Assembly (NCBI GenBank): GCA_002966495.1
Contig: CP016490.1
Location: 2,590,454-2,622,453 of the forward strand
Length of the DNA: 32,000 nucleotides
Reading direction: 5' to 3'
From: Halomonas sp. GFAJ-1
GTDB taxonomy: Bacteria; Pseudomonadota; Gammaproteobacteria; Pseudomonadales; Halomonadaceae
The first letter of the stretch is position 1, and every line of letters starts with the position of its first letter. Of this stretch, positions 1-24,027 are shown in pieces. Below the pieces are notes generated by a model. That model did not search any database, was not told the DNA's origin, and was given only the letters and a program-made list of their open reading frames with translations. Both the position numbers and the translations under genes were made by a program.

Positions 1-1422
1 TTTGATACCGCCTATCGCCATTACGCGGTGGCGTCGGATGCCACCGGCGTGGAGCTGCTAAAAAACCTGGACGCCGCCGTAGAGCGCTGTTACGACGAGT
101 GGTTCCTGGGCCAGCTCACCCGTAACTGGAGCGAGCGCGTAGAAGCCGAACAGCGGCTCACCCACTGGAAGCTGCCGAACATTCCCAGCCAGCAACACTT
201 CTACCGCGACTGGGTGCAGCCCCAGCTAGGTGCTAGCCGCCAAAAGCGTGTGGTGGTGGTGATTAGCGATGCCTTCCGCTATGAAGCGGCGGAAGAGCTG
301 CGTGAGCGCATTAATGCCAAGCGCTACAGCGAAGCGACGTTAAAAAGCCAGTTGGGTGTGGTGCCCAGCTACACCACCCTGGGGATGGCCTCGCTGTTAC
401 CGCACCGGGAACTCAGCTATCAGCCGGGCAGCGATACGGTGTTGGTGAACGGCCAATCTACCCAAGGCACGGCGAACCGCAGCAAGCTACTCAAAGCCGC
501 GCTAGGCGGGGAGGCGTTAGCCGTCACCGCCGACGAGGTAAAAGGCTGGAGCCGTGAAGAGGGGCGCGAAAAGATCAAAGGCGTGCAGCTGATGTACGTG
601 TACCACAACGTGGTAGATGCCCGTGGAGATGCCGCCAACACCGAAAGCGAGACGTTCGCATCGGTGGAAGATGCCATTGATGAACTGGATCAGCTGACCC
701 GTAAAATTCTCATGCACCTGAACACCAGCACGGTGCTGGTCACCGCCGACCATGGTTTCCTGTTCCAGCGTAGCGCCTTGGATGCTACCGACCGCACGGC
801 GCTGTCAGAAAAGCCAACATCGGCCTTCAAAAGCAAAAAGCGCTATGTGCTGGGTGAATCGCTGCCCGATAACCCCAGTGTGTGGCACGGCCATACCCGC
901 GATACCGCAGGCACCACCTGTGACACCCAGTTCTGGATACCCAAAGGCGCGCACCGTTTTCATTTTGTGGGCGGGGCGCGTTTTGTACATGGGGGCATTA
1001 TGCCCCAGGAAATTGTGGTGCCGGTGCTTACTGTTCAGCAGCTTCGGGGCGAGAAGGTGGAAAAGCGCACCAGTCGCAAGGTGGAAGTCATTTCACCCAA
1101 GGCATCGCTGAAGATGGTCAATAACATTCAGCGTTTTGAGCTGCTGCAAACCGAAGCGGTCAGCGAGCGCCTCCGCCCAGTCACGCTGTCGGTGGCGATT
1201 TACGCGGGCAGCGAGGTGGTTTCCAGTGAAGAGGTCGTGACCTTCGATAGCGCAAGCGACAATATGACCGAGCGCATGAAGTCGGTGCGCCTCTCGCTAT
1301 CAGGCACGTCATTCGACCGCAAGAATGACTACTTCCTGGTGTTGCGGGATAAAGACCTAGGCACCGAACGGGAGCGCTACCGGGTAGTAATTGATCTCGC
1401 GTTTACAGACGATTTTTTCTAG
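1..1422 (+). CDS. pglZ: BREX protein PglZ (BrxZ, alkaline-phosphatase superfamily), C-terminal part; 5' end lies outside the window
   Basis: Frame 1 is open from base 1 into ORF 28..1422. Motifs VVVVISDAFRYEAAEEL, VPSYTTLGMASLLPH and LVTADHGF are typical of the PglZ core. brxL follows directly, as in type 1 BREX. Confidence 0.85.
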   Translation, partial: FDTAYRHYAVASDATGVELLKNLDAAVERCYDEWFLGQLTRNWSERVEAEQRLTHWKLPNIPSQQHFYRDWVQPQLGASRQKRVVVVISDAFRYEAAEELRERINAKRYSEATLKSQLGVVPSYTTLGMASLLPHRELSYQPGSDTVLVNGQSTQGTANRSKLLKAALGGEALAVTADEVKGWSREEGREKIKGVQLMYVYHNVVDARGDAANTESETFASVEDAIDELDQLTRKILMHLNTSTVLVTADHGFLFQRSALDATDRTALSEKPTSAFKSKKRYVLGESLPDNPSVWHGHTRDTAGTTCDTQFWIPKGAHRFHFVGGARFVHGGIMPQEIVVPVLTVQQLRGEKVEKRTSRKVEVISPKASLKMVNNIQRFELLQTEAVSERLRPVTLSVAIYAGSEVVSSEEVVTFDSASDNMTERMKSVRLSLSGTSFDRKNDYFLVLRDKDLGTERERYRVVIDLAFTDDFF

Positions 1423-1494
1423 GCCAGTCATCAGCGGGAACGCTTTTATGTTTGTGCATTGTGCTTTTAACGTCGTTCAGGAGTGACCGCCCAC

Positions 1495-3567
1495 ATGGAT
1501 TTTGATTCAACTTCCGCCACGCAAGTGACTGACGCCCTCCAGGATGCCGATCTGGATACGCTGCTCAACACGCACTTTGCGGGCCGCGTGGTGCGTAAGG
1601 ATCTCACTCAACGCGTGAAAGAGGGCGCAAACGTGCCTGTTTACGTGCTGGAGTACCTGTTGGGTATGTACTGCGCCTCAGACGATGCGGAGGTGATCGC
1701 TACGGGATTGGAAAACGTTAAAGCGATTCTGACGGATAACTACGTTCGCCCGGATGAAGCGGAGAAAGTGAAATCCATCGTGCGCGAGCGCGGCAGCTTC
1801 AAGGTGATTGATCGTGTCACGGTGCGCCTGAACGAGAAAAAAGACCGCTATGAAGCGGCGTTCAGTAACTTAGGCATCAAAGATGCCGAGATCTCCGCAG
1901 GCATTGTTAAAGAGCACGAGAAACTGCTGGTAGGCGGTATTTGGGTGATTGCCACGCTCAGCTATTTTCATGAAGAGGGTCAGTCATCGTCACCGTTTGG
2001 CGTCAGCCTGCTCAAGCCAATTCAGATGCCCCACATGAATATGGACGAGCTGTTTGAAGGGCGGCGTGGCTTTACCAATACCCAGTGGCGAGAGGTGCTG
2101 ATTCGCTCGATTGGCATGGAGCCTGCCGAGCTAGATGAGAGCGTACAGTGGCACCTGCTGGCCCGGATGATTCCGTTTGTTGAGAACAACTACAACGTCT
2201 GCGAGCTAGGGCCACGGGGCACAGGCAAAAGTCATATCTATAAAGAGTGCTCACCCAACAGCATTTTGGTCTCTGGCGGGCAAACCACGGTGGCCAACCT
2301 GTTCTACAACATGAGCTCGCGTCGCATTGGCCTGGTAGGCATGTGGGATTTGGTGGCCTTCGATGAAGTGGCCGGTATCTCGTTCAAGGATAAGGATGGG
2401 GTGCAGATCATGAAGGATTACATGGCCTCTGGTTCTTTTGCCCGTGGGCGCGAACAGATGGAAGCCTCAGCCTCGATGGTGTTTGTGGGCAACATCAACC
2501 AAAGCGTGGAGTCGCTGGTAAAAACCAGCCACCTATTGACACCATTCCCCGATGCCATGATTGATGCCGCCTTCTTTGATCGCTTCCATGCCTATATTCC
2601 CGGCTGGGAAATCCCCAAGATGCGGCCCTCGTTTTTTACTCAGCGCTATGGGTTTATTGTTGATTACCTCGCTGAATTCTTCCGTGAGATGCGCAAACGC
2701 AACTTCGCCGATGCTATTGATCGCTACTTCTCGTTGGGTGACAACCTCAACCAACGTGACGTGATTGCGGTGCGTAAAACCGTGTCGGGCCTGCTGAAAC
2801 TGATGTTCCCCCATGGGGAATACATGAAAGACGATGTACGCGATTGCCTGGAATACGCCATGCAGGTACGCCGCCGCGTGAAGGAGCAGCTGAAAAAGAT
2901 TGGTGGCATGGAGTTTTACGATGTTCATTTCAGCTACATCGACAAAGAGACCTTGGAAGAGCACTTTGTGTCTGTGAAAGAGCAGGGCGGTGGCGGCCTG
3001 ATTCCAGAAGGCCAGGGCAAGCCAGGCGTGGTGCATACCATTGGCCTCAGCGATAAAGGCATGCCGGGGGTTTACCGCATCGAAATGCAGGTCACGGCGG
3101 GCAGCGGCAAGCTGGCCATGTCAGGGCTCTGGAACTCCACCGCCGCCAAAGAGCAGGTCAAAATGGCCTTTGATTACTTCAAGGCCAACGCCAGCCGCAT
3201 TAGCGGTGCCCGTAAGGTGCTAGAGCACGACTTTCACCTCCATGTGGTCGATCTGCAAAATAGCGGCGTTTTGCGTGACCTTTCGCTCGCCAGCTTGGTC
3301 GCGTTCTCTTCAGGCCTGGTAGGTAAACCTACTCAGAGCCAAATGGTCGTGCTGGGTGATATGAGCCTGGGAGGCAGCCTAAAGCCCGTCGCAAGCCTAG
3401 CGGAATGCCTGCAGGTTGCTTTTGATGCCGGTGGCAAGCGCGTCACCCTGCCCATGAGCAGCGCCATAGATATTCCCACCATCCCCGGAGAGCTGTTCAC
3501 CAAGTTCCAAACTAGCTTCTATGCCGAACCGATTGATGCAGTGGTCAAAGCGCTTGGGGTGGGTTAA
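1495..3567 (+). CDS. brxL: BREX Lon-like protease/ATPase BrxL
   Basis: Contains FAGRVVRKDLT..GANVPVYVLEYLLGMYC at the N-terminus, a P-loop GPRGTGKS, and a Lon-protease-like C-terminal domain. It is the last gene after pglZ. ATG 1495 is preferred over GTG 1483, because AGGAG at 1479-1483 overlaps the GTG. Confidence 0.85.
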   Translation: MDFDSTSATQVTDALQDADLDTLLNTHFAGRVVRKDLTQRVKEGANVPVYVLEYLLGMYCASDDAEVIATGLENVKAILTDNYVRPDEAEKVKSIVRERGSFKVIDRVTVRLNEKKDRYEAAFSNLGIKDAEISAGIVKEHEKLLVGGIWVIATLSYFHEEGQSSSPFGVSLLKPIQMPHMNMDELFEGRRGFTNTQWREVLIRSIGMEPAELDESVQWHLLARMIPFVENNYNVCELGPRGTGKSHIYKECSPNSILVSGGQTTVANLFYNMSSRRIGLVGMWDLVAFDEVAGISFKDKDGVQIMKDYMASGSFARGREQMEASASMVFVGNINQSVESLVKTSHLLTPFPDAMIDAAFFDRFHAYIPGWEIPKMRPSFFTQRYGFIVDYLAEFFREMRKRNFADAIDRYFSLGDNLNQRDVIAVRKTVSGLLKLMFPHGEYMKDDVRDCLEYAMQVRRRVKEQLKKIGGMEFYDVHFSYIDKETLEEHFVSVKEQGGGGLIPEGQGKPGVVHTIGLSDKGMPGVYRIEMQVTAGSGKLAMSGLWNSTAAKEQVKMAFDYFKANASRISGARKVLEHDFHLHVVDLQNSGVLRDLSLASLVAFSSGLVGKPTQSQMVVLGDMSLGGSLKPVASLAECLQVAFDAGGKRVTLPMSSAIDIPTIPGELFTKFQTSFYAEPIDAVVKALGVG

Positions 3568-16541: not shown

Positions 16542-16762
16542 TTTCTAGCTTAGGCATAAGCCCAAGGCTTTTGTGTTGTTTGACCAGGTGTGCTCATTCG
16601 ATGGTAGTGACAACGGTTAGGCGTGAGCGGCGCTGACATTACAGCCTTTGATCATTGAGAAGGCGCGATGAGCTTTATAGGCCAATATTTTTTAGAAAAA
16701 TTTATGCTTTATGGTGGATAGCTGCTATACGTTTGATAAGGATATCTTAGCAGGTGGTTGCC

Positions 16763-18001
16763 ATGAAATTGCTTGTCCGCCCAAGACCGTTCATTAACGA
16801 GTCACTTGAGAGCTACATGCTCCGTCTATCGCAAGAAAATTTCTTCGAATACTATCAGCAGCTTAGTCGAGCGATAAAAGACTGGCTGCAACTGCATGAT
16901 CATGAAGCGGCAGGGGCGTTCCCAGAAGAGTTGAGCCGTTTGAATGTTTATCACGCGGCTCAGAGTAGTAGTCGACGCATCAGGGCGCTCAAGCTAGTGG
17001 AGTCGCTAACAGATAATGAAAAACTTCCGCTACTGCACTTGGCAGTCATGCATTCCAGCGAGAAATTTTGTTCACGCTACAGTAGCGTGTTTTATGCAGG
17101 TAGCCATGTACCCCGAGCGTTAGTTCGCCAAAAGGGGATACCTGTCTGCCCTGATTGCCTCACTGAAGCCAACTACATTCGGCAAGAATGGCACTGGATG
17201 CCCTACGAAGCTTGTATTAATCATGGCAAACAGATGTTACATGAGTGTCCAAAATGCGAAGAGAAATTAAATTACACCCATTCTGAATGTTTGCATACTT
17301 GCCGCTGCGGATTTGATCTTCGAAATGCTGACACGGAGCCAGCAGACGAATGGCAGCTTATCGCTAGCCGCCTCGTAGTAGGTGAGCCTTCGCCTTCAAA
17401 CCACCCTCTACTCGACATCCGTTCAGTCAGTTTGCGCCTAGCATGTCTGTTGTGGTACCAGCTGTATGCATATAAAACGTTAGATGCTAGTAATCAGGTT
17501 CCCACTCTTACGATTGAGCGGGCTATCGAGTATTTCACGCATTGGCCTGAAGTGTTTACACAGGAACTAGAGCAGCAAGCGGCGCTTTCAGGCGAGAAAT
17601 TAGTATGTGATTATAATAAAACCTCATTTCGTGATGTTTTTGGCAACATTGTCGGCATTTCGCGTCTGCTGTTGAAGGCTTATCCAGAAAGCGATTTCGT
17701 CTTGACGCCATTGGAGAATTTTTTAGCACGATTGGTTGATCAGAATCCGCAATCACGTGTGCCAAACGTCGCAGATCTGCTCATCAGTATGCCGGAAGCC
17801 GCGATTTTGCTTGGCACGTCGTATGAGCAAGCATACCGTCTATATGAAGAAGGGTATCTCAAATGCGCGGTCAAATTTAAATCACATGAAAAGCTAGTGA
17901 ACGGTATAGGAGTATTTTACTTAAGAGAAATCATGGAGTTGCGTCAGTCACGAATACCGGTTGAGGCAAGCAGCTATAATAATTATTTACCAGCGTGGTA
18001 A
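16763..18001 (+). CDS. tniQ: TniQ family transposition/targeting protein
   Basis: N-terminal PRPFINESLESYMLRLSQEN. Cys clusters CPDC and CPKC..C.C form a likely zinc ribbon. AGGTGG lies 5 nt upstream of ATG 16763. The stop is 4 nt before the next gene. Confidence 0.8.
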   Translation: MKLLVRPRPFINESLESYMLRLSQENFFEYYQQLSRAIKDWLQLHDHEAAGAFPEELSRLNVYHAAQSSSRRIRALKLVESLTDNEKLPLLHLAVMHSSEKFCSRYSSVFYAGSHVPRALVRQKGIPVCPDCLTEANYIRQEWHWMPYEACINHGKQMLHECPKCEEKLNYTHSECLHTCRCGFDLRNADTEPADEWQLIASRLVVGEPSPSNHPLLDIRSVSLRLACLLWYQLYAYKTLDASNQVPTLTIERAIEYFTHWPEVFTQELEQQAALSGEKLVCDYNKTSFRDVFGNIVGISRLLLKAYPESDFVLTPLENFLARLVDQNPQSRVPNVADLLISMPEAAILLGTSYEQAYRLYEEGYLKCAVKFKSHEKLVNGIGVFYLREIMELRQSRIPVEASSYNNYLPAW

Positions 18002-18005
18002 CGTC

Positions 18006-20066
18006 ATGTCGTTAAGTACGTTGTTGGAATTGGATGAGCCAAACCGCTCAGAAGCAATTCGTAAAGCTTTCGCTCCCTACACGCAGCCGCTAGAGGTTTC
18101 TGAAGATGTTAACGCTGCTATTCTGGTGTTGCTTAACTTATCGCATAAGCGTCAAGACGCTCCCGATTTGTTGAATAAAAAAAGAGCAATTGAAACACTC
18201 AAAGATTGGCAGTATATCGAAAGTTGTGCTCAAGAAGTACAGTGGCTGCACTCACATAATCTAAAGCATCCTGATACACGTGTCGCACATCAGAGATTGT
18301 TAGTAAAAGCTGAGAAGCCCTCGGACAGTATTGTTTCTTCATATAATAGCGTGAGTCGTTTGGGCTGGTCACACAACTCAGCAGCTGTGAATAAAGCAAA
18401 GCTTTTTGGAGCTAATTTTATATTTAAGGGTGTAGTTTACTGTTTGGCCGCTATTTTTTTAGATAATAACAAGCAATGGCGGAAAGAATTCATGAATCTT
18501 GGTATGTCTGATGGTCAATGGACTTACCTTCAGTCGCTTTTTGATAATTATTTCACTAAAAATTTATCACCCTCTTATGTGGAAAGGCATTCGGTGCAAG
18601 TTACCTTTCTTTATCAAGGAAAGGATGTCAGTATTACACCTGTCACATCACATTCATTACTGGCCGACATTCAAATTGCTCGGCGTAATAAATGTGGAGA
18701 TTTTGCAACAATAAAACATTGGCACTCTTCAAGTGTTGGAGATTTAGCATCCTCGCTTGGAGGTAATATCTCTGCTCTTAGTTATCCCCCTCGACTATTA
18801 GCCTGTAGCCAAAATAAAGAAAATGAAAATTCTTCTGGAGTCTTTTTTGTAGACTTCCATCACAGTTCTTTAAGAAGCAAATCGTTTATCCTGGCATGTA
18901 CTGAAATTGTTGAAAGTAAAAGCTTGTTGACCGGAAAGAAGAGGCGAGATCATAGGCGTTCTGCTATTAAGTTGCTGAGGCAGTCTTTATCTGAATGGCT
19001 ATCCCCAGTTAGCTATTGGCGAAATGTAGGAGGAGAAGCGCTTTCAGAACGGCAGAACAATTCAGCATGCCTTTTGATTTCTGCTCCTGACGAGGATTTA
19101 CTTGAAATCCTACCTGAGATTAATAAAGAATTACACAGTATTTTGGTGAGGTATCCCCAAACGCAAAGCTTTGCTTATCATCCAGAGCTATTAATTCCTT
19201 TCAAGGCTCAGCTTAAGTCCTTATTGATTGGGATGAAAATAAAAGAAGACGAAGCTATGGCTGAAGAGCCATATTATTACCTTCACTTAAAAAACCTACA
19301 TGTATTCGATGCACAGGCGTTATCTTGTCCCTATCTAGTGGGTTTGCCTTCACTGCTGGCAGTATGGGGAACCGTCTATAACTACCAGCTACGTTTACGA
19401 AGCATCCTTAAACGGAACATTGCCTTTGAAGGAGTTGCTTGGTTTTTGCGGCAGTATGAGTCCTCCTCGGGTGCCAAGATACCTGCCCCGTATCTGGCAC
19501 CAACGAAGCCAGGTGAGGCTCCCAAGCGGCCAGGTCTTATTGATATGCGCTTTTGCGATTTACGCATGGATTTAGTTATTCGCTATCGACTAGAGGATGG
19601 GCACGATACCCCGCTTGGAAATGACGAATTGCCTATGCTGCAGTCTGCACTCCCCGGGAGGTTCGCTGGGGGGACTATGCAGCCTCCGCCACTTTATGAA
19701 GCCTTACAGTGGTGCCAACTACATGGAGATGCGAACAGTTTATTGGCAGCCATATCGCTTCTGCCGGACGAGGGTCGTTGGGTTGTCGACTCAGAAAAAC
19801 AGGTGCAAAGCATCGACAGCTTGGTGGCATGGTTGTCCAAGCATCCCCATCATTTACCTGCTATGAGTGGCTATCAGTTGTTTGAAGAACCTTGCTATCG
19901 GTCTGGTTCACACAGGGAGCTCCATGCTTATGCTGAGCCTTTGGTAGGTCTAACAGAGACGTTGTCACCGGCAAGCGTCAGGCTCAATGGTAAAGCTGAC
20001 TTTCTTAAAAACGCTTTTTGGAGGTTGAAAAGCCAGAACCTTACTATGCTGATGAAAAAAGCATAG
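18006..20066 (+). CDS. cas8: Cas8f/Cas5f-fusion-like large Cascade subunit (type I-F3 'Cas8')
   Basis: Its 686-aa size and its position between tniQ and cas7 match I-F3 CAST operons. I could not verify an independent motif by eye. Confidence 0.7.
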   Translation: MSLSTLLELDEPNRSEAIRKAFAPYTQPLEVSEDVNAAILVLLNLSHKRQDAPDLLNKKRAIETLKDWQYIESCAQEVQWLHSHNLKHPDTRVAHQRLLVKAEKPSDSIVSSYNSVSRLGWSHNSAAVNKAKLFGANFIFKGVVYCLAAIFLDNNKQWRKEFMNLGMSDGQWTYLQSLFDNYFTKNLSPSYVERHSVQVTFLYQGKDVSITPVTSHSLLADIQIARRNKCGDFATIKHWHSSSVGDLASSLGGNISALSYPPRLLACSQNKENENSSGVFFVDFHHSSLRSKSFILACTEIVESKSLLTGKKRRDHRRSAIKLLRQSLSEWLSPVSYWRNVGGEALSERQNNSACLLISAPDEDLLEILPEINKELHSILVRYPQTQSFAYHPELLIPFKAQLKSLLIGMKIKEDEAMAEEPYYYLHLKNLHVFDAQALSCPYLVGLPSLLAVWGTVYNYQLRLRSILKRNIAFEGVAWFLRQYESSSGAKIPAPYLAPTKPGEAPKRPGLIDMRFCDLRMDLVIRYRLEDGHDTPLGNDELPMLQSALPGRFAGGTMQPPPLYEALQWCQLHGDANSLLAAISLLPDEGRWVVDSEKQVQSIDSLVAWLSKHPHHLPAMSGYQLFEEPCYRSGSHRELHAYAEPLVGLTETLSPASVRLNGKADFLKNAFWRLKSQNLTMLMKKA

Positions 20067-20076
20067 GCAGGTCGGC

Positions 20077-21126
20077 ATGATGAACTCTTTCAGGCATCTT
20101 AGCTATGAGCGCTCTCTCAATCCGGGTAAGGCGGTTTTTTATTACCGGACAGATTCGAGCGAATTTGAGCCGTTGCAAGCGGAAGTGACGCGGTTTCGTG
20201 GCCCCAAGGCAACGTTTAGCGATGGCTATATGGCATCCGGGACTGCGCGTGCTAAAGAAACGAGCGATTTGGGCTTTTCTAATCCTATAATGCTCGAAAC
20301 GTGTTATGTACCACCGCTAGTCGATACGTTGTATTGTCGTTTTTCTTTACGCATCATTGCAAACAGCTTAGAGCCAAATATCTGTGATAATGCAGAAGCG
20401 ACAAAAGCATTAAAAGAATTCTCTGATACTTATAGAAACTTGGGCGGATACCAAGAGCTAGCAACTCGATATGCTAAAAATATTCTTTCAGCTGAATGGC
20501 TTTGGAAAAATAAAGTTGCAAGAGGGATAGCTGTGGAGGTTTCTACGTCTAATTTAAAAAACTATTGTATTAAAGATGCACAGTATAAAGAGTGGGGATC
20601 CTCTTGGGAAGGAGATGAGCTTAAATCATTAGAAGGGCTTGCAGTTGAGTTTGAAGAGGCACTTTCTTGCCCACAAAAATTTCTTTTTGCTGATGTAGCT
20701 GCCAAAATAAAAACAGAATTTTGCCAAGAAATTTTCCCCAGTCAATTATTTGTTGAGAAAGATGATAGAGGCAACGGAAGTGCGTCTAGGCAGTTTATGA
20801 AAAGCACGATGAACGATGGTCGTCAAGCAGTTAGCTTTGGTGCTTATAAAGTCGGAGCAGCAATTCAAAAAATTGATGACTGGTGGCTAGATGAAGGGGC
20901 TGAATACCCTTTGAGAGTGAGTGAATACGGTGCAGATCGTAGTCGGGTTTTAGCTATGCGTGAACCAGTTACGAAGAAAGATTTTTACTCGCTGTTAAAC
21001 GAAATTACAAATATCACGGAGGAAATGATTAAAACCAGGCAGGCCAGCCCTAATGCACACTACGTGATGTCAGTGCTAGTGAAGGGGGGGATGTTCCAAA
21101 AAGGAATAAAGAAGGGTGAAAAATGA
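20077..21126 (+). CDS. cas7: Cas7f-like Cascade backbone subunit
   Basis: Blocks LSYERSL, ELATRYAKNILSAEWLWKNK, GAYKVGAAIQKIDDWW, KDFYSLL and VKGGMFQKG match what I recall of I-F/I-F3 Cas7. Confidence 0.8.
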   Translation: MMNSFRHLSYERSLNPGKAVFYYRTDSSEFEPLQAEVTRFRGPKATFSDGYMASGTARAKETSDLGFSNPIMLETCYVPPLVDTLYCRFSLRIIANSLEPNICDNAEATKALKEFSDTYRNLGGYQELATRYAKNILSAEWLWKNKVARGIAVEVSTSNLKNYCIKDAQYKEWGSSWEGDELKSLEGLAVEFEEALSCPQKFLFADVAAKIKTEFCQEIFPSQLFVEKDDRGNGSASRQFMKSTMNDGRQAVSFGAYKVGAAIQKIDDWWLDEGAEYPLRVSEYGADRSRVLAMREPVTKKDFYSLLNEITNITEEMIKTRQASPNAHYVMSVLVKGGMFQKGIKKGEK

Positions 21127-21731
21127 GATACTTTTTTTGCATAAAATATCTAATGCCTTCAGGCAATCACGCATTTTTAGCAGGGAGGTGTATTGCTTGC
21201 TTACATGGGTTTATAAGCGGCCCTAAAATAACGAATTCCGGCATTGGTGTTTCGTTTCCATCATGGGCTACGGGCACAGTTGGTGATTCAATCGCTTTCG
21301 TGAGTAAAGATATTAATGCTTTGTCTTATTTATCATCAGCGCGCTGTTTTAAGAATATGGCGGACGAAGGGTTTATTGACGTTAGTGATATTAAAATGGT
21401 TCCAGAGAAATTAGAAGAAGTTAGGTTTATTAGAAATCAGCATATTGCTAAATCTTTTCCGGGAGAAATTAAGAGACGGCTCATCCGCAGCAAAAACCGG
21501 GCTGAAAAACGTGGCGAGACGTTCATGCCTAGCAGTGCCGTATCAGATCGCTTCGTTGATCAATGCCACGTAATTCCAATTGATAGCCGATCGTCAGGCC
21601 AGCGCTTCCCACTGTATGTGCAGCTTGAAGCACTTGGCGAAGAAAGCAAGTATAATAACTACAATAGTTACGGGCTTGCTACACAGTATACATACTCGGG
21701 TTCGGTGCCAAACCTTAAGCAGATTACCTAA
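21123..21731 (+). CDS. cas6: Cas6f-like crRNA endoribonuclease
   Basis: ATGA overlap with the cas7 stop. Blocks GIGVSFPSW, basic RRLIRSKNRAEKRGE and C-terminal SYGL. The leader and array follow. Confidence 0.75.
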   Translation: MRYFFCIKYLMPSGNHAFLAGRCIACLHGFISGPKITNSGIGVSFPSWATGTVGDSIAFVSKDINALSYLSSARCFKNMADEGFIDVSDIKMVPEKLEEVRFIRNQHIAKSFPGEIKRRLIRSKNRAEKRGETFMPSSAVSDRFVDQCHVIPIDSRSSGQRFPLYVQLEALGEESKYNNYNSYGLATQYTYSGSVPNLKQIT

Positions 21732-21854
21732 ATATTTTCAGAATATATATTATTATACTTATCAATTACTTGCCTGAATTACGCTAAAAAGTGTGTTTTT
21801 ATCATTTTGTACTTATCTCGTTGATGTCTATATTTAAACTGCTAGCTAGGTCTA

Positions 21855-22002
21855 GTGAACCGCCGAATAGGCAGCTGAAAAAAGCACGTAGAGGAAGCAA
21901 GGGCAGAGGTGCCCGTGAACCGCCGAATAGGCAGCTGAAAAATGATTGAACGGTGCGCATATGCATCTGAGTGCGTGAACCGCCGAATAGGCAGCTGATA
22001 TT
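21855..22002 (+). CRISPR. CRISPR array: three 28-nt I-F-like repeats, two 32-nt spacers
   Basis: Repeats GTGAACCGCCGAATAGGCAGCTGAAAAA at 21855 and 21915, and a variant ...GCTGATATT at 21975. This matches the canonical I-F repeat GTTCACTGCCGTATAGGCAGCTAAGAAA at 22/28 positions. Spacers are at 21883-21914 and 21943-21974. An AT-rich leader spans 21732-21854. A possible degenerate fourth repeat lies at 22031-22057. Confidence 0.9.
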
Positions 22003-22060
22003 AGGACTGGAAGCCAGCAACGGTAATGATACACACCGCCGCAAGGCAGCAATGGTTCTA

Positions 22061-22092
22061 AACCCTCCAAGATTTCTTGGAGGGTTTTTTTT
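22061..22092 (+). terminator. rho-independent terminator after the array
   Basis: AACCCTCCAAG-attt-CTTGGAGGGTT followed by T8. Confidence 0.7.
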
Positions 22093-22230
22093 ATAGGGTC
22101 GGATAGTACCCAGTGCACATGAGGACGAGCGTATTGCCTGACATGCCATTGATTTAATGAACTCTTATAAATCAAGCGCTGCATTTCGTTAGCAGTCAAA
22201 TATTGGTCAGTCGTTGCGGGCGCACTTTCG

Positions 22231-22264
22231 TACACCTAAACTACAAATATATAGTTTAGGTGTA
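22231..22264. promoter_or_regulatory. 12-bp perfect inverted repeat, candidate operator of the AbiEi-like gene
   Basis: TACACCTAAACT-acaaatatat-AGTTTAGGTGTA, ending 5 nt before ATG 22270. Confidence 0.5.
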
Positions 22265-22269
22265 TACTT

Positions 22270-22809
22270 ATGAATCAGATGACAGCTCGGCAGCGACTGG
22301 ATGATTGGGATAAAATCGGGAGAAATATATTTACACTGAGTGACTTAGCAAAGATCTTTCATGAAGATAAACCAAAAACCCTTCAGGAAGGAATCAACCG
22401 ATTGCGTAAGCACGGGATACTCGAAGGCGTTACCCGAGGTATCTATTGCTATGCTCATTCGCGCACTCCCGACACCTATCGGCTGGAGAAAATCGCTCGT
22501 GCTATGCGCCGTGGCGAGTACAGCTACGTGTCACTGGAGTCCGCCCTTTCAGAGTATGGGGCCATCTCACAAATCCCGGTCGATCGTCTAACAATTATGA
22601 CAACGGGACGCAAAGGAACGCACCGCACCCCTTATGGAACTATTGAGTTCACTCATACGAGTAGACGCATCATTGAGCTGCTGCCGCGCATGCTTGATAT
22701 TGGGCGGCCGCTCAAGATGGCGACCCTTGATGCTGCCTGGGCAGATCTCAAACGTGTGGGGCGAAATACGTATTTAGTAGATGTAGAGGTGATTCATGGT
22801 CAGGGGTGA
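22270..22809 (+). CDS. AbiEi-like antitoxin/transcriptional regulator (wHTH N-terminal domain)
   Basis: TLSDLAKIF...LQEGINRLRKHGILEGVTRGIYCY followed by YVSLESALSEYG resembles AbiEi family antitoxins. Confidence 0.6.
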   Translation: MNQMTARQRLDDWDKIGRNIFTLSDLAKIFHEDKPKTLQEGINRLRKHGILEGVTRGIYCYAHSRTPDTYRLEKIARAMRRGEYSYVSLESALSEYGAISQIPVDRLTIMTTGRKGTHRTPYGTIEFTHTSRRIIELLPRMLDIGRPLKMATLDAAWADLKRVGRNTYLVDVEVIHGQG

Positions 22810-23160: not shown

Positions 23161-23311
23161 GTTTTTTTATAACGTCATTTTGCTACCGAAGCAAACGATC
23201 GTTTTACTTTATGTCATTTAAAAGTGGAAAACTTATGTCATTTTGCGGTGGAATTCTTGGTGTAAGTGACTGTTTTTTCGTATTGGTTATGTCAAGTTGA
23301 AGTGGAAACGA
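23161..23311 (+). mobile_element. Tn7-like transposon end (tnsA-proximal) with terminal TGT and four direct TnsB-type repeats
   Basis: TGTTTTTTTAT terminus at 23161. Repeats are ACGTCATTTTGCTACCGAAG (23173), ATGTCATTTAAAAGTGGAAAAC (23212), ATGTCATTTTGCGGTGGAATTC (23236) and ATGTCAAGTTGAAGTGGAAACG (23290). tnsA begins 97 bp further in. Confidence 0.7.
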
Positions 23312-23407
23312 CAATTTCTTGTCGTTTTCAATACTAGTTGGCATAATTCTCAAATAACTGGCATGAGCTACCTTTTATATAATTAAACTACATAAAAGGG
23401 TGGAGCC

Positions 23408-24027
23408 ATGTACCGCCGCAAGCTCCGTCACTCCCGCGTCAAAAATCTCTATGAGTTCGCTAGTGCCAAGAACGGCAATGTCCTAACCGTCGAATCGACT
23501 TTGGAATTCGATGCCTGCTTTCACTTTGAATATTCGAATGATATTCAGTCTTTTGAAGCCCAGCCTATAGGGTTTCACTACAACTACGAAGCCAAAACCC
23601 TCCCCTATACCCCAGATTTTCGTTTAATTAATGTGTCAGGCGTTGCTACTTTCGTCGAAATCAAGCCTGCTAGCTTTTTTTAAAACCTGAAATTATGCAA
23701 CGTTTTGCCGCTAAAAGAGATGCTGCTAAAAGTCAAGGTTTCAACTTGATACTAGTGTCTGACCGCCAAATACATGTAAACCCACTTTTGTATAACCTAA
23801 AGTTACTGCATAGATATTCAGGCTTATCGCTAATCAATGATTTCCATCACTCTATTTTGAAGATAATAGAGAAATTTCGAAAAGTAAAAGTGGGTTATTT
23901 GTTAGAAAGAATATCAGCTGAAGAGGGCTCGATAATGCGTGCGATTATAAGCCTCCTTCAGTTACGCTTGGTTAAAGCAAATTTTACCATTGAAAAAATT
24001 GGCAGAAATACAACTATATGGTGCTGA
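23408..24027 (+). pseudogene. tnsA: tnsA (Tn7-type endonuclease) split by a frameshift in a T7 run
   Basis: The N-terminal fragment carries TnsA catalytic-type motifs (STLEFD, YTPDF, VEIKP). The C-terminal fragment is in another frame. Adding one T at 23675-23681 fuses them (..ASFFLKPEIMQRF..). No tnsB follows. Confidence 0.7.

Follow-up and report, generated by a model that had tools for sequence, protein, structure and literature searches.

The terminal repeat-spacer unit of a minimal CRISPR array probably encodes the ffs homing guide of a type I-F3b Tn7-like transposon in Halomonas sp. GFAJ-1

A stretch of 32,000 nucleotides from the chromosome of Halomonas sp. GFAJ-1 (here referred to as the window) carries a minimal CRISPR array, the end of which (21975-22057) very probably specifies the crRNA used for homing by a CRISPR-associated Tn7-like transposon (CAST) of type I-F3b. 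This reading, which the first-pass annotation of the window had put forward as a candidate, is supported by a protospacer with a CC PAM in the ffs gene of the host genome and by a terminal unit that is kept in every relative found, while the canonical spacers vary. Homing arrangements of this sort have been described before (Petassi et al. 2020; Roberts et al. 2022) and are textbook knowledge for I-F3b elements. The result is therefore largely a confirmation; what is new is another element, close to Tn7474.

The array forms the last part of a tniQ-cas8/5-cas7-cas6 operon inside a Tn7-like element (Table 1). It contains three direct copies of the 28-nt repeat unit GTGAACCGCCGAATAGGCAGCTGAAAAA, spaced with a period of 60 nt, which leaves two spacers of 32 nt each. 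In the third copy, the 3' end is changed from CTGAAAAA to CTGATATT by three substitutions, all of which fall within the last four bases. Behind it follows a fourth, atypical repeat that reads ACACACCGCCGCAAGGCAGCAATGGTT, in which the two hairpin arms (CCGCC, 22036-22040, and GGCAG, 22045-22049) are identical to those of the canonical repeat, whereas the loop is the 4-nt GCAA instead of GAATA and the flanks are unlike the canonical repeat. All of these elements, i.e., the three repeats, the two canonical spacers, the variant end of the third repeat, and the fourth repeat with its retained stem, GCAA loop, and unrelated flanks, had been described in the first-pass annotation and were recovered at the same positions. 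The exact arms CCGCC..GGCAG occur at just two other places in ~64 kb, both strands (~1.6e-5 per position), and since the fourth hairpin is not only rare in this sense but also lies in register after the third repeat, it is not a chance structure. In silico, the repeat stem, which is interrupted by a C.A mismatch, gives a weak fold (-4.9 kcal/mol, z ~0); in relatives this mismatch is repaired to U-A (metagenome contig L040) or to C-G (first repeat of V. sedimenti). A strong intrinsic terminator begins 10 nt past the fourth hairpin. Two reverse-strand reading frames that run across the array (21802-22149 and 21852-22235) were discarded as artefacts of the repeats. Likewise, a repeat-like 28-mer, GCGAACTGCTGAGCAGGCAGCTGATAGA, at genome positions 2547824-2547851 (L003 2824-2851), which has seven mismatches to the repeat and is not part of the element but falls inside a stretch spanned by a long reading frame on the reverse strand, was taken as a chance occurrence.

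Table 1. Features of the CAST operon, the array and the left element end, in window coordinates
Feature	Position	Strand	Remarks
tniQ	16754-18001	+	415 aa; Pfam TniQ PF06527, E 2.8e-10
cas8/cas5 fusion	17961-20066	+	Pfam Cas_Csy2 in C-terminal part, E 2e-6; start codon uncertain
cas7 (Csy3)	20077-21126	+	Pfam Cas_Csy3, E 5.9e-57
cas6 (Csy4), repeat-hairpin endoribonuclease	21123-21731	+	Pfam Cas_Csy4, E 2e-22
AT-rich leader	21732-21854	+	between cas6 stop and first repeat
Two canonical repeat-spacer units	21855-21974	+	repeats 21855-21882 and 21915-21942; spacers 21883-21914 and 21943-21974
Third repeat	21975-22002	+	variant last 8 nt CTGATATT at 21995-22002, putative 5' handle of the homing crRNA
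Predicted homing guide against ffs	22003-22030	+	complementarity 22003-22028 (positions 1-26); 22029-22035 behaves like a linker
Final atypical repeat	22031-22057	+	ACACA linker, hairpin CCGCC-GCAA-GGCAG (22036-22049), unconserved tail
Intrinsic terminator closing the array transcript	22060-22097	+	12-bp stem 22060-22087 and T-run; stem kept in relatives
Left end of the element	23161-23314		finishes ...GTGGAAACGACA; TGACATAA-type repeats present
Target-site duplication	23315-23319		ATTTC, 5 bp; other copy directly before the right end

Within the operon, the cas8/cas5 fusion sits between tniQ and cas7 in the same orientation, and no cas1, cas2-3, or nuclease genes were found nearby. The whole host genome contains a single TniQ match, which is the Cascade-linked one, and a single Csy3 match, the cas7 of the element. 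With no second Csy3, the host has no canonical I-F1 system that could supply spacers or misuse the guide. The sole Cas1 match of the genome (2202789-2203606; L051, L052), at a distance of 0.4 Mb, is spread across two frames that overlap and hence probably represents a broken gene. The Tn7-like core (TnsA, TnsB, and TnsC) is present in the element, with the transposase genes located ~29 kb upstream of the window: a TnsA-TnsB fusion of 835 aa in one reading frame (L003 16240-18747; genome 2561240-2563747), composed of a TnsA-like N-domain (44-119), an rve domain (445-545), and a Mu-transposase C domain (647-711), together with a TniB-type TnsC. Directly before these genes are ffs (SRP RNA; Rfam RF00169, 72 bits) and a tRNA-Met gene, and the 3' end of ffs stops 13 nt short of the element's right end. 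This right end starts with TGTCGTTTCTCC at genome position 2561130, outside the window, and shares a 9-bp terminal inverted repeat, TGTCGTTTC, with the left end. The ends fit those expected of a Tn7-like element (TGT termini, repeated TnsB sites, and a 5-bp duplication); with the right end at 2561130, the left end at window position 23314, and ATTTC on both sides, the element measures 52,638 bp (genome 2561130-2613767). Empty sites in two related genomes that do not contain the element read ...CCTCCATTTCT/G... or, in the longer reading, ...GCCGCCTCCATTTCT/G.... As for cargo, positions 1-3567 of the window hold BREX defence genes, namely, a PglZ-domain protein (with its 5' end beyond the window) and a BrxL Lon-like protease. 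The interval from the array to the left end contains a gene for an AbiEi-type antitoxin/regulator (22270-22809), with a perfect 13-bp palindrome just upstream of it (22231-22243 / 22252-22264) and no evident AbiEii partner.

The sequence between the third and the fourth repeat matches ffs. When read as a spacer of canonical length (22003-22034), it aligns ungapped with genome positions 2561058-2561089, with 21 of 32 positions matching and CC directly in front; this protospacer lies ~29.4 kb upstream of the window start and adjoins the element's right end. Genome-wide, 13 other sites among 7.3 million positions reach 21/32 with this spacer, and the probability that such a match falls by chance in the ~100 nt adjoining the right end, in the correct orientation and preceded by CC, is of the order of 1e-5. 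In positions 1-26, mismatches to the host ffs are found at 4, 6, 12, 13, 24, and 25, of which 6, 12, and 24 are flipped-out sixth positions, an established feature of type I guides. Sixth-position mismatches are treated likewise by Petassi et al. (bioRxiv 10.1101/2020.07.02.184150). Position 4 (inside the seed) and position 13 are mismatches of another kind, and position 25 is an additional one in the host ffs; the other seven hosts that carry a related element have T at position 25 of their ffs and consequently a 22/32 match. The first-pass annotation had reported no match to any spacer within the window, and this was found to be correct, as the protospacer falls outside it. It had further expected that a protospacer would lie about 50 bp from one end of an element and have a CC PAM; the PAM was found as anticipated and the distance was not, the measured value being 40 nt. 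The lack of a genomic match, which it had named alongside a lack of crRNA as a sign that the similarity reflects random decay, does not apply in view of the ffs match. A search of the attachment region against the whole element with blastn-short for a second homing guide returned just the 22016-22025 seed in spacer 3, and no repeat-like hairpins were present beside any match to the attachment region elsewhere in the element. For the two canonical spacers, no match was obtained in the host genome (up to 8 mismatches), in plasmids (best E 5), or in phages (best E 6).

To collect relatives of the element, species-representative genomes were searched with Cas7, and 342 genomes from the same family with Cas6. 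Seven further elements with the same terminal unit were identified, i.e., in V. glaciei, V. lionensis, V. titanicae BH1, V. sedimenti, and three other genomes of the genus. A pattern scan added seven metagenome contigs, mostly marine, a set that is biased by the pattern itself. All eight genomic elements are located after ffs with the right end proximal and share the same protospacer with a CC PAM; they are kin, so the agreement among them overstates their independence. The element of strain BH1 can be recognised as a described one, since its ends as mapped here enclose 38,808 bp, which is exactly the length given for Tn7474 of Halomonas titanicae BH1 in Table 1 of Roberts et al. (PMC9723613), where this ffs-associated element is among ten CASTs validated in E. 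coli; in the same article, its activity is reported at a lacZ target (Roberts et al. 2022). Tn7474 and the window element have in common the ffs attachment site, the protospacer, the CC PAM, the CTGATATT handle, an identical 32-nt terminal spacer, the hairpin stem, and the terminator position, with 90% identity in Cas7 and 82% in Cas6. They differ in size (52,638 bp for the window element vs 38,808 bp), in cargo (the window element carries BREX genes and integron cassettes), in the right-end sequence (TGTCGTTTCTCC... vs TGTCGTTTCTGG... in Tn7474), in the number of canonical spacers (two vs nine), and in the final loop (GCAA vs GCAAT), and the window element is inserted 1 bp closer, with ATTTC rather than TTTCT as the duplication.

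The layout also corresponds to what has been described for I-F3b elements, which reside downstream of ffs and whose terminal spacer, placed between atypical repeats, is the attachment-site guide; in the final repeat, GTG (positions 1-3) and the conservation at positions 21-28 tend to be lost, and I-F1 systems are kept from using the guide by the atypical repeats (Petassi et al., bioRxiv 10.1101/2020.07.02.184150). According to the same work, the guide of Tn6900 against ffs is functional with 10 mismatches. Experiments with Tn6900 have also shown that variant flanking repeats mark the attachment-site guide. In the window, the final repeat is without GTG and without the conserved last 8 nt, and the terminal spacer is contiguous with the main array. 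Tn6900 (Aeromonas salmonicida S44), which was compared by its description, is thus similar to the window element in being an I-F3b element downstream of ffs with a terminal spacer between atypical repeats, in the degenerate ffs match (10 mismatches vs 10-11 in the window clade), and in a final repeat that has lost GTG and the last 8 nt; however, its insertion distance is ~48 nt vs 40-41 nt in the window clade, and the stretch before the hairpin is 4-6 nt short in the window clade relative to Tn6900, both again as judged from the description. The window clade also uses a CC PAM, unlike most ffs-homing elements, 96.6% of which have TC (PMC12774636). Taken on its attachment site, array layout, and identity to Tn7474, the window element would belong to I-F3b.

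The dimensions of the terminal unit deviate from those of other I-F3 elements in three ways, as seen by comparison with five other I-F3 CASTs from the same bacterial family that served as controls (L024-L028 with L034-L038). I) The stretch from handle to hairpin is 33 nt in the window and 31 nt in one relative (G318), vs 37 nt in the element's own canonical units; the terminal units of the controls have 36-37 nt. II) The guide pairs well with ffs as far as position 26, and beyond this the agreement is random, with just position 28 among positions 27-32 matching in seven of the eight elements, whereas complementarity in the controls reaches position 32. III) The right end follows the equivalent of a 32-nt protospacer after 40-41 nt in all eight elements (40 nt in the host), vs 48-49 nt in the controls when measured alike. 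The eight elements thereby lie 8-9 bp closer than the ~48-49 bp taken as characteristic of I-F3b elements; for comparison, Roberts et al. mention an integration distance of ~49 nt (PMC9723613). When counted from position 26, the distance in the eight elements becomes 46-47 nt. At least three different right-end sequences occur among them, and these, together with a remnant in the window, share one site that is 1 bp wide.

In the controls, 22-27 of the 32 positions of the terminal spacers match a sequence that directly precedes tnsA, with mismatches that tend to sixth positions and a CC or CA PAM, and two of the five have a 4-nt GTAA loop in the final repeat. Two further CAST-like loci of the Halomonadaceae (L029 2850-2936 and L030 3076-3166) have a separate two-repeat mini-array 330-341 bp past the main array, which resembles the non-contiguous homing array described for I-F3a elements. 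No further ffs-homing comparators were found in an order-level sample of 400 genomes, which yielded two CASTs of another family with non-ffs terminal spacers, one unclassified locus (L057), and two canonical I-F1 systems.

Two explanations of this geometry come into consideration, and neither touches the homing function itself. The one with an almost even likelihood is that a normal six-Cas7 Cascade with a 32-nt footprint is used and that the 40-41 nt are intrinsic to the TniQ, TnsC, and TnsAB fusion of the clade. Consistent with this, the clade carries a TnsAB fusion, integration-distance patterns vary between systems as noted by Roberts et al. (PMC9723613), and the plasmid and phage searches revealed no natural insertion for which one of the clade's canonical 32-nt spacers had been the guide. 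An intrinsic offset is harder to reconcile with a control (G189) that has an 867-aa TnsAB-type reading frame and is still inserted at 49 nt, with the shortened stretch before the hairpin (33/31 nt), and with complementarity that ends at position 26 here and at 32 in the controls. The other explanation, which is our preferred reading but is put forward tentatively and as somewhat less than evenly likely, is that the homing guide has been shortened by one 6-nt Cas7 step and would consist of 26 complementary nt, followed by a linker of 5-7 nt and a hairpin with a GNRA cap; it would then be loaded into a five-Cas7 Cascade that directs insertion 8-9 bp closer to the PAM. Reportedly, Klompe et al. 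observed in 2019 that a longer spacer moves the insertion site. The principle of a short guide has a precedent, because Petassi et al. mention an I-F3b sub-branch in which the final spacer is 10-12 bp shorter and insertion is commensurately closer (bioRxiv 10.1101/2020.07.02.184150). As far as it is described there, this sub-branch is like the window clade in combining a shortened terminal guide with a closer natural insertion site, and differs in the extent of the shortening, which is 4-6 nt in the window clade, with a shift of 8-9 bp, vs 10-12 bp in the sub-branch.

Among 23 canonical spacers from the relatives that were compared with plasmids, one plausible match was obtained, namely, spacer 4 of G318 with a Halomonas qaidamensis plasmid (L022; L054 309-340, NZ_CP080628.1), with 28/32 positions matching, a GC PAM, and a blastn E of 0.2. 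Two of its mismatches are at sixth positions, and the match weakly fits plasmid targeting by canonical guides; as a calibration of the insertion distance, it was not usable.

Across the eight genomes and seven metagenome contigs, the canonical spacers differ (one to nine per array; 25 distinct ones, all exactly 32 nt), while handle, guide, hairpin, and terminator are kept. The handle is CTGATATT in seven of the eight genomes and CTGATATA in the remaining one. The consensus of the guide among the relatives is AGGACTGGAAG[C/A][C/A]AGCA[A/T]CGGTAATGATA.., with positions 1-11, 14-17, and 19-29 invariant and two of the three variable positions (12 and 18) being sixth positions. The hairpin CCGCC-GCAA-GGCAG is nearly invariant, the exceptions being the GCAAT loop of BH1 (Tn7474) and CTGCC-GAAA-GGCAG in metagenome contig L040, and each of the 15 copies observed has intact stem arms; the 8 nt past the hairpin vary freely. 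When the eight relatives are aligned, ~66 columns among the first 76 in the terminal unit show no variation, vs 52 of 151 in the leader. Segment 22026-22031 (ATGATA) pairs with ffs only at positions 26 and 28, yet is conserved like the pairing part, which suggests that it may be read by a protein rather than by the target.

These patterns leave it very unlikely that the unit is a decayed array end, i.e., an ordinary degenerate terminal repeat with a fossil spacer that gives no functional crRNA. Degenerate terminal repeats are common in CRISPR arrays and the ffs match is just 21/32, as decay would have it, but the terminal unit is more conserved than both the leader and the tail behind the hairpin across elements whose Cas7 proteins are only 66% identical, every copy has retained its stem arms, and variation in the guide favours sixth positions. 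Moreover, the various right ends and the remnant all share a single 1-bp-wide site, and the guide of Tn6900 is functional with as many as 10 mismatches. That TniQ recognises ffs DNA directly, like TnsD of Tn7, with the spacer match as a relic or coincidence, is highly improbable: some I-F3 elements (parE branch) do have a second TniQ/TnsD for protein-based recognition of the attachment site (PMC11406308), but the one TniQ of this genome is Cascade-linked, PAM, strand, and side of the protospacer are all right, and a guide explains the position of essentially all I-F3 elements (Petassi et al., bioRxiv 10.1101/2020.07.02.184150).

For a homing guide, the following route can be proposed. The array transcript would start from the leader and stop at the terminator, and Cas6 would cut 3' of each hairpin, with the cut in the final repeat expected after G22049. 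The predicted homing crRNA of ~55 nt (21995-22049) would begin with the handle CUGAUAUU and continue with the guide AGGACUGGAAGCCAGCAACGGUAAUG... and a short linker, up to the hairpin with its GCAA cap, which may keep Cas6 bound. TniQ-Cascade loaded with this crRNA would bind ffs at the CC PAM, after which TnsC and TnsAB would integrate the element with its right end leading, shortly behind the 3' end of ffs, and 5 bp would be duplicated. The variant flanking repeats would mark the terminal guide as the element's own attachment-site guide, and the two canonical spacers would serve other targets, presumably mobile elements. We infer processing by Cas6, loading into Cascade, and a present-day activity of the element from this arrangement.

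The ffs site bears traces of older insertions. From position 23321 of the window, six bases beyond the left end of the CAST, a second Tn7-like right end starts with TGTCGTTTTCAATAC... (region 23320-24027) and is followed by a broken tnsA in the form of a 91-aa frame and then a 110-aa frame, the first of which shows a weak match to the TnsA-like N-domain, under the Pfam cut-off. This older, decayed Tn7-like element keeps just a tnsA fragment and had inserted 1 bp further from ffs. Decayed right-end remnants were also observed at the same site downstream of ffs in two related genomes without cas6 (L047 from G250 and L048 from G245); one of them reads TGTCGTTTCCGGTCTG... and continues into a degraded tnsA start, and the other is a mutated end.

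With these results, the annotation of the locus is fixed as a complete 52.6-kb CAST with both ends, attachment site, and homing guide, and ffs is shown as a landing pad that has been used repeatedly and eroded in Vreelandella/Halomonas. The part that stands out is the geometry, with a guide unit that is 4-6 nt short, pairing to position 26, and 40-41 nt to the right end in eight elements vs 48-49 nt in the controls. If the guide is indeed shortened by one Cas7 step, it would stand for a separate -6-nt class among private guides, next to the -10 to -12-nt class of Petassi et al., would bring the insertion immediately up to the 3' end of ffs, and would give natural access to the molecular ruler of I-F CASTs. 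Should a Cascade with five Cas7 subunits be the cause, repeats alone would shift insertion predictably, which would be relevant to the engineering of CAST insertion positions and to an understanding of guide privacy.
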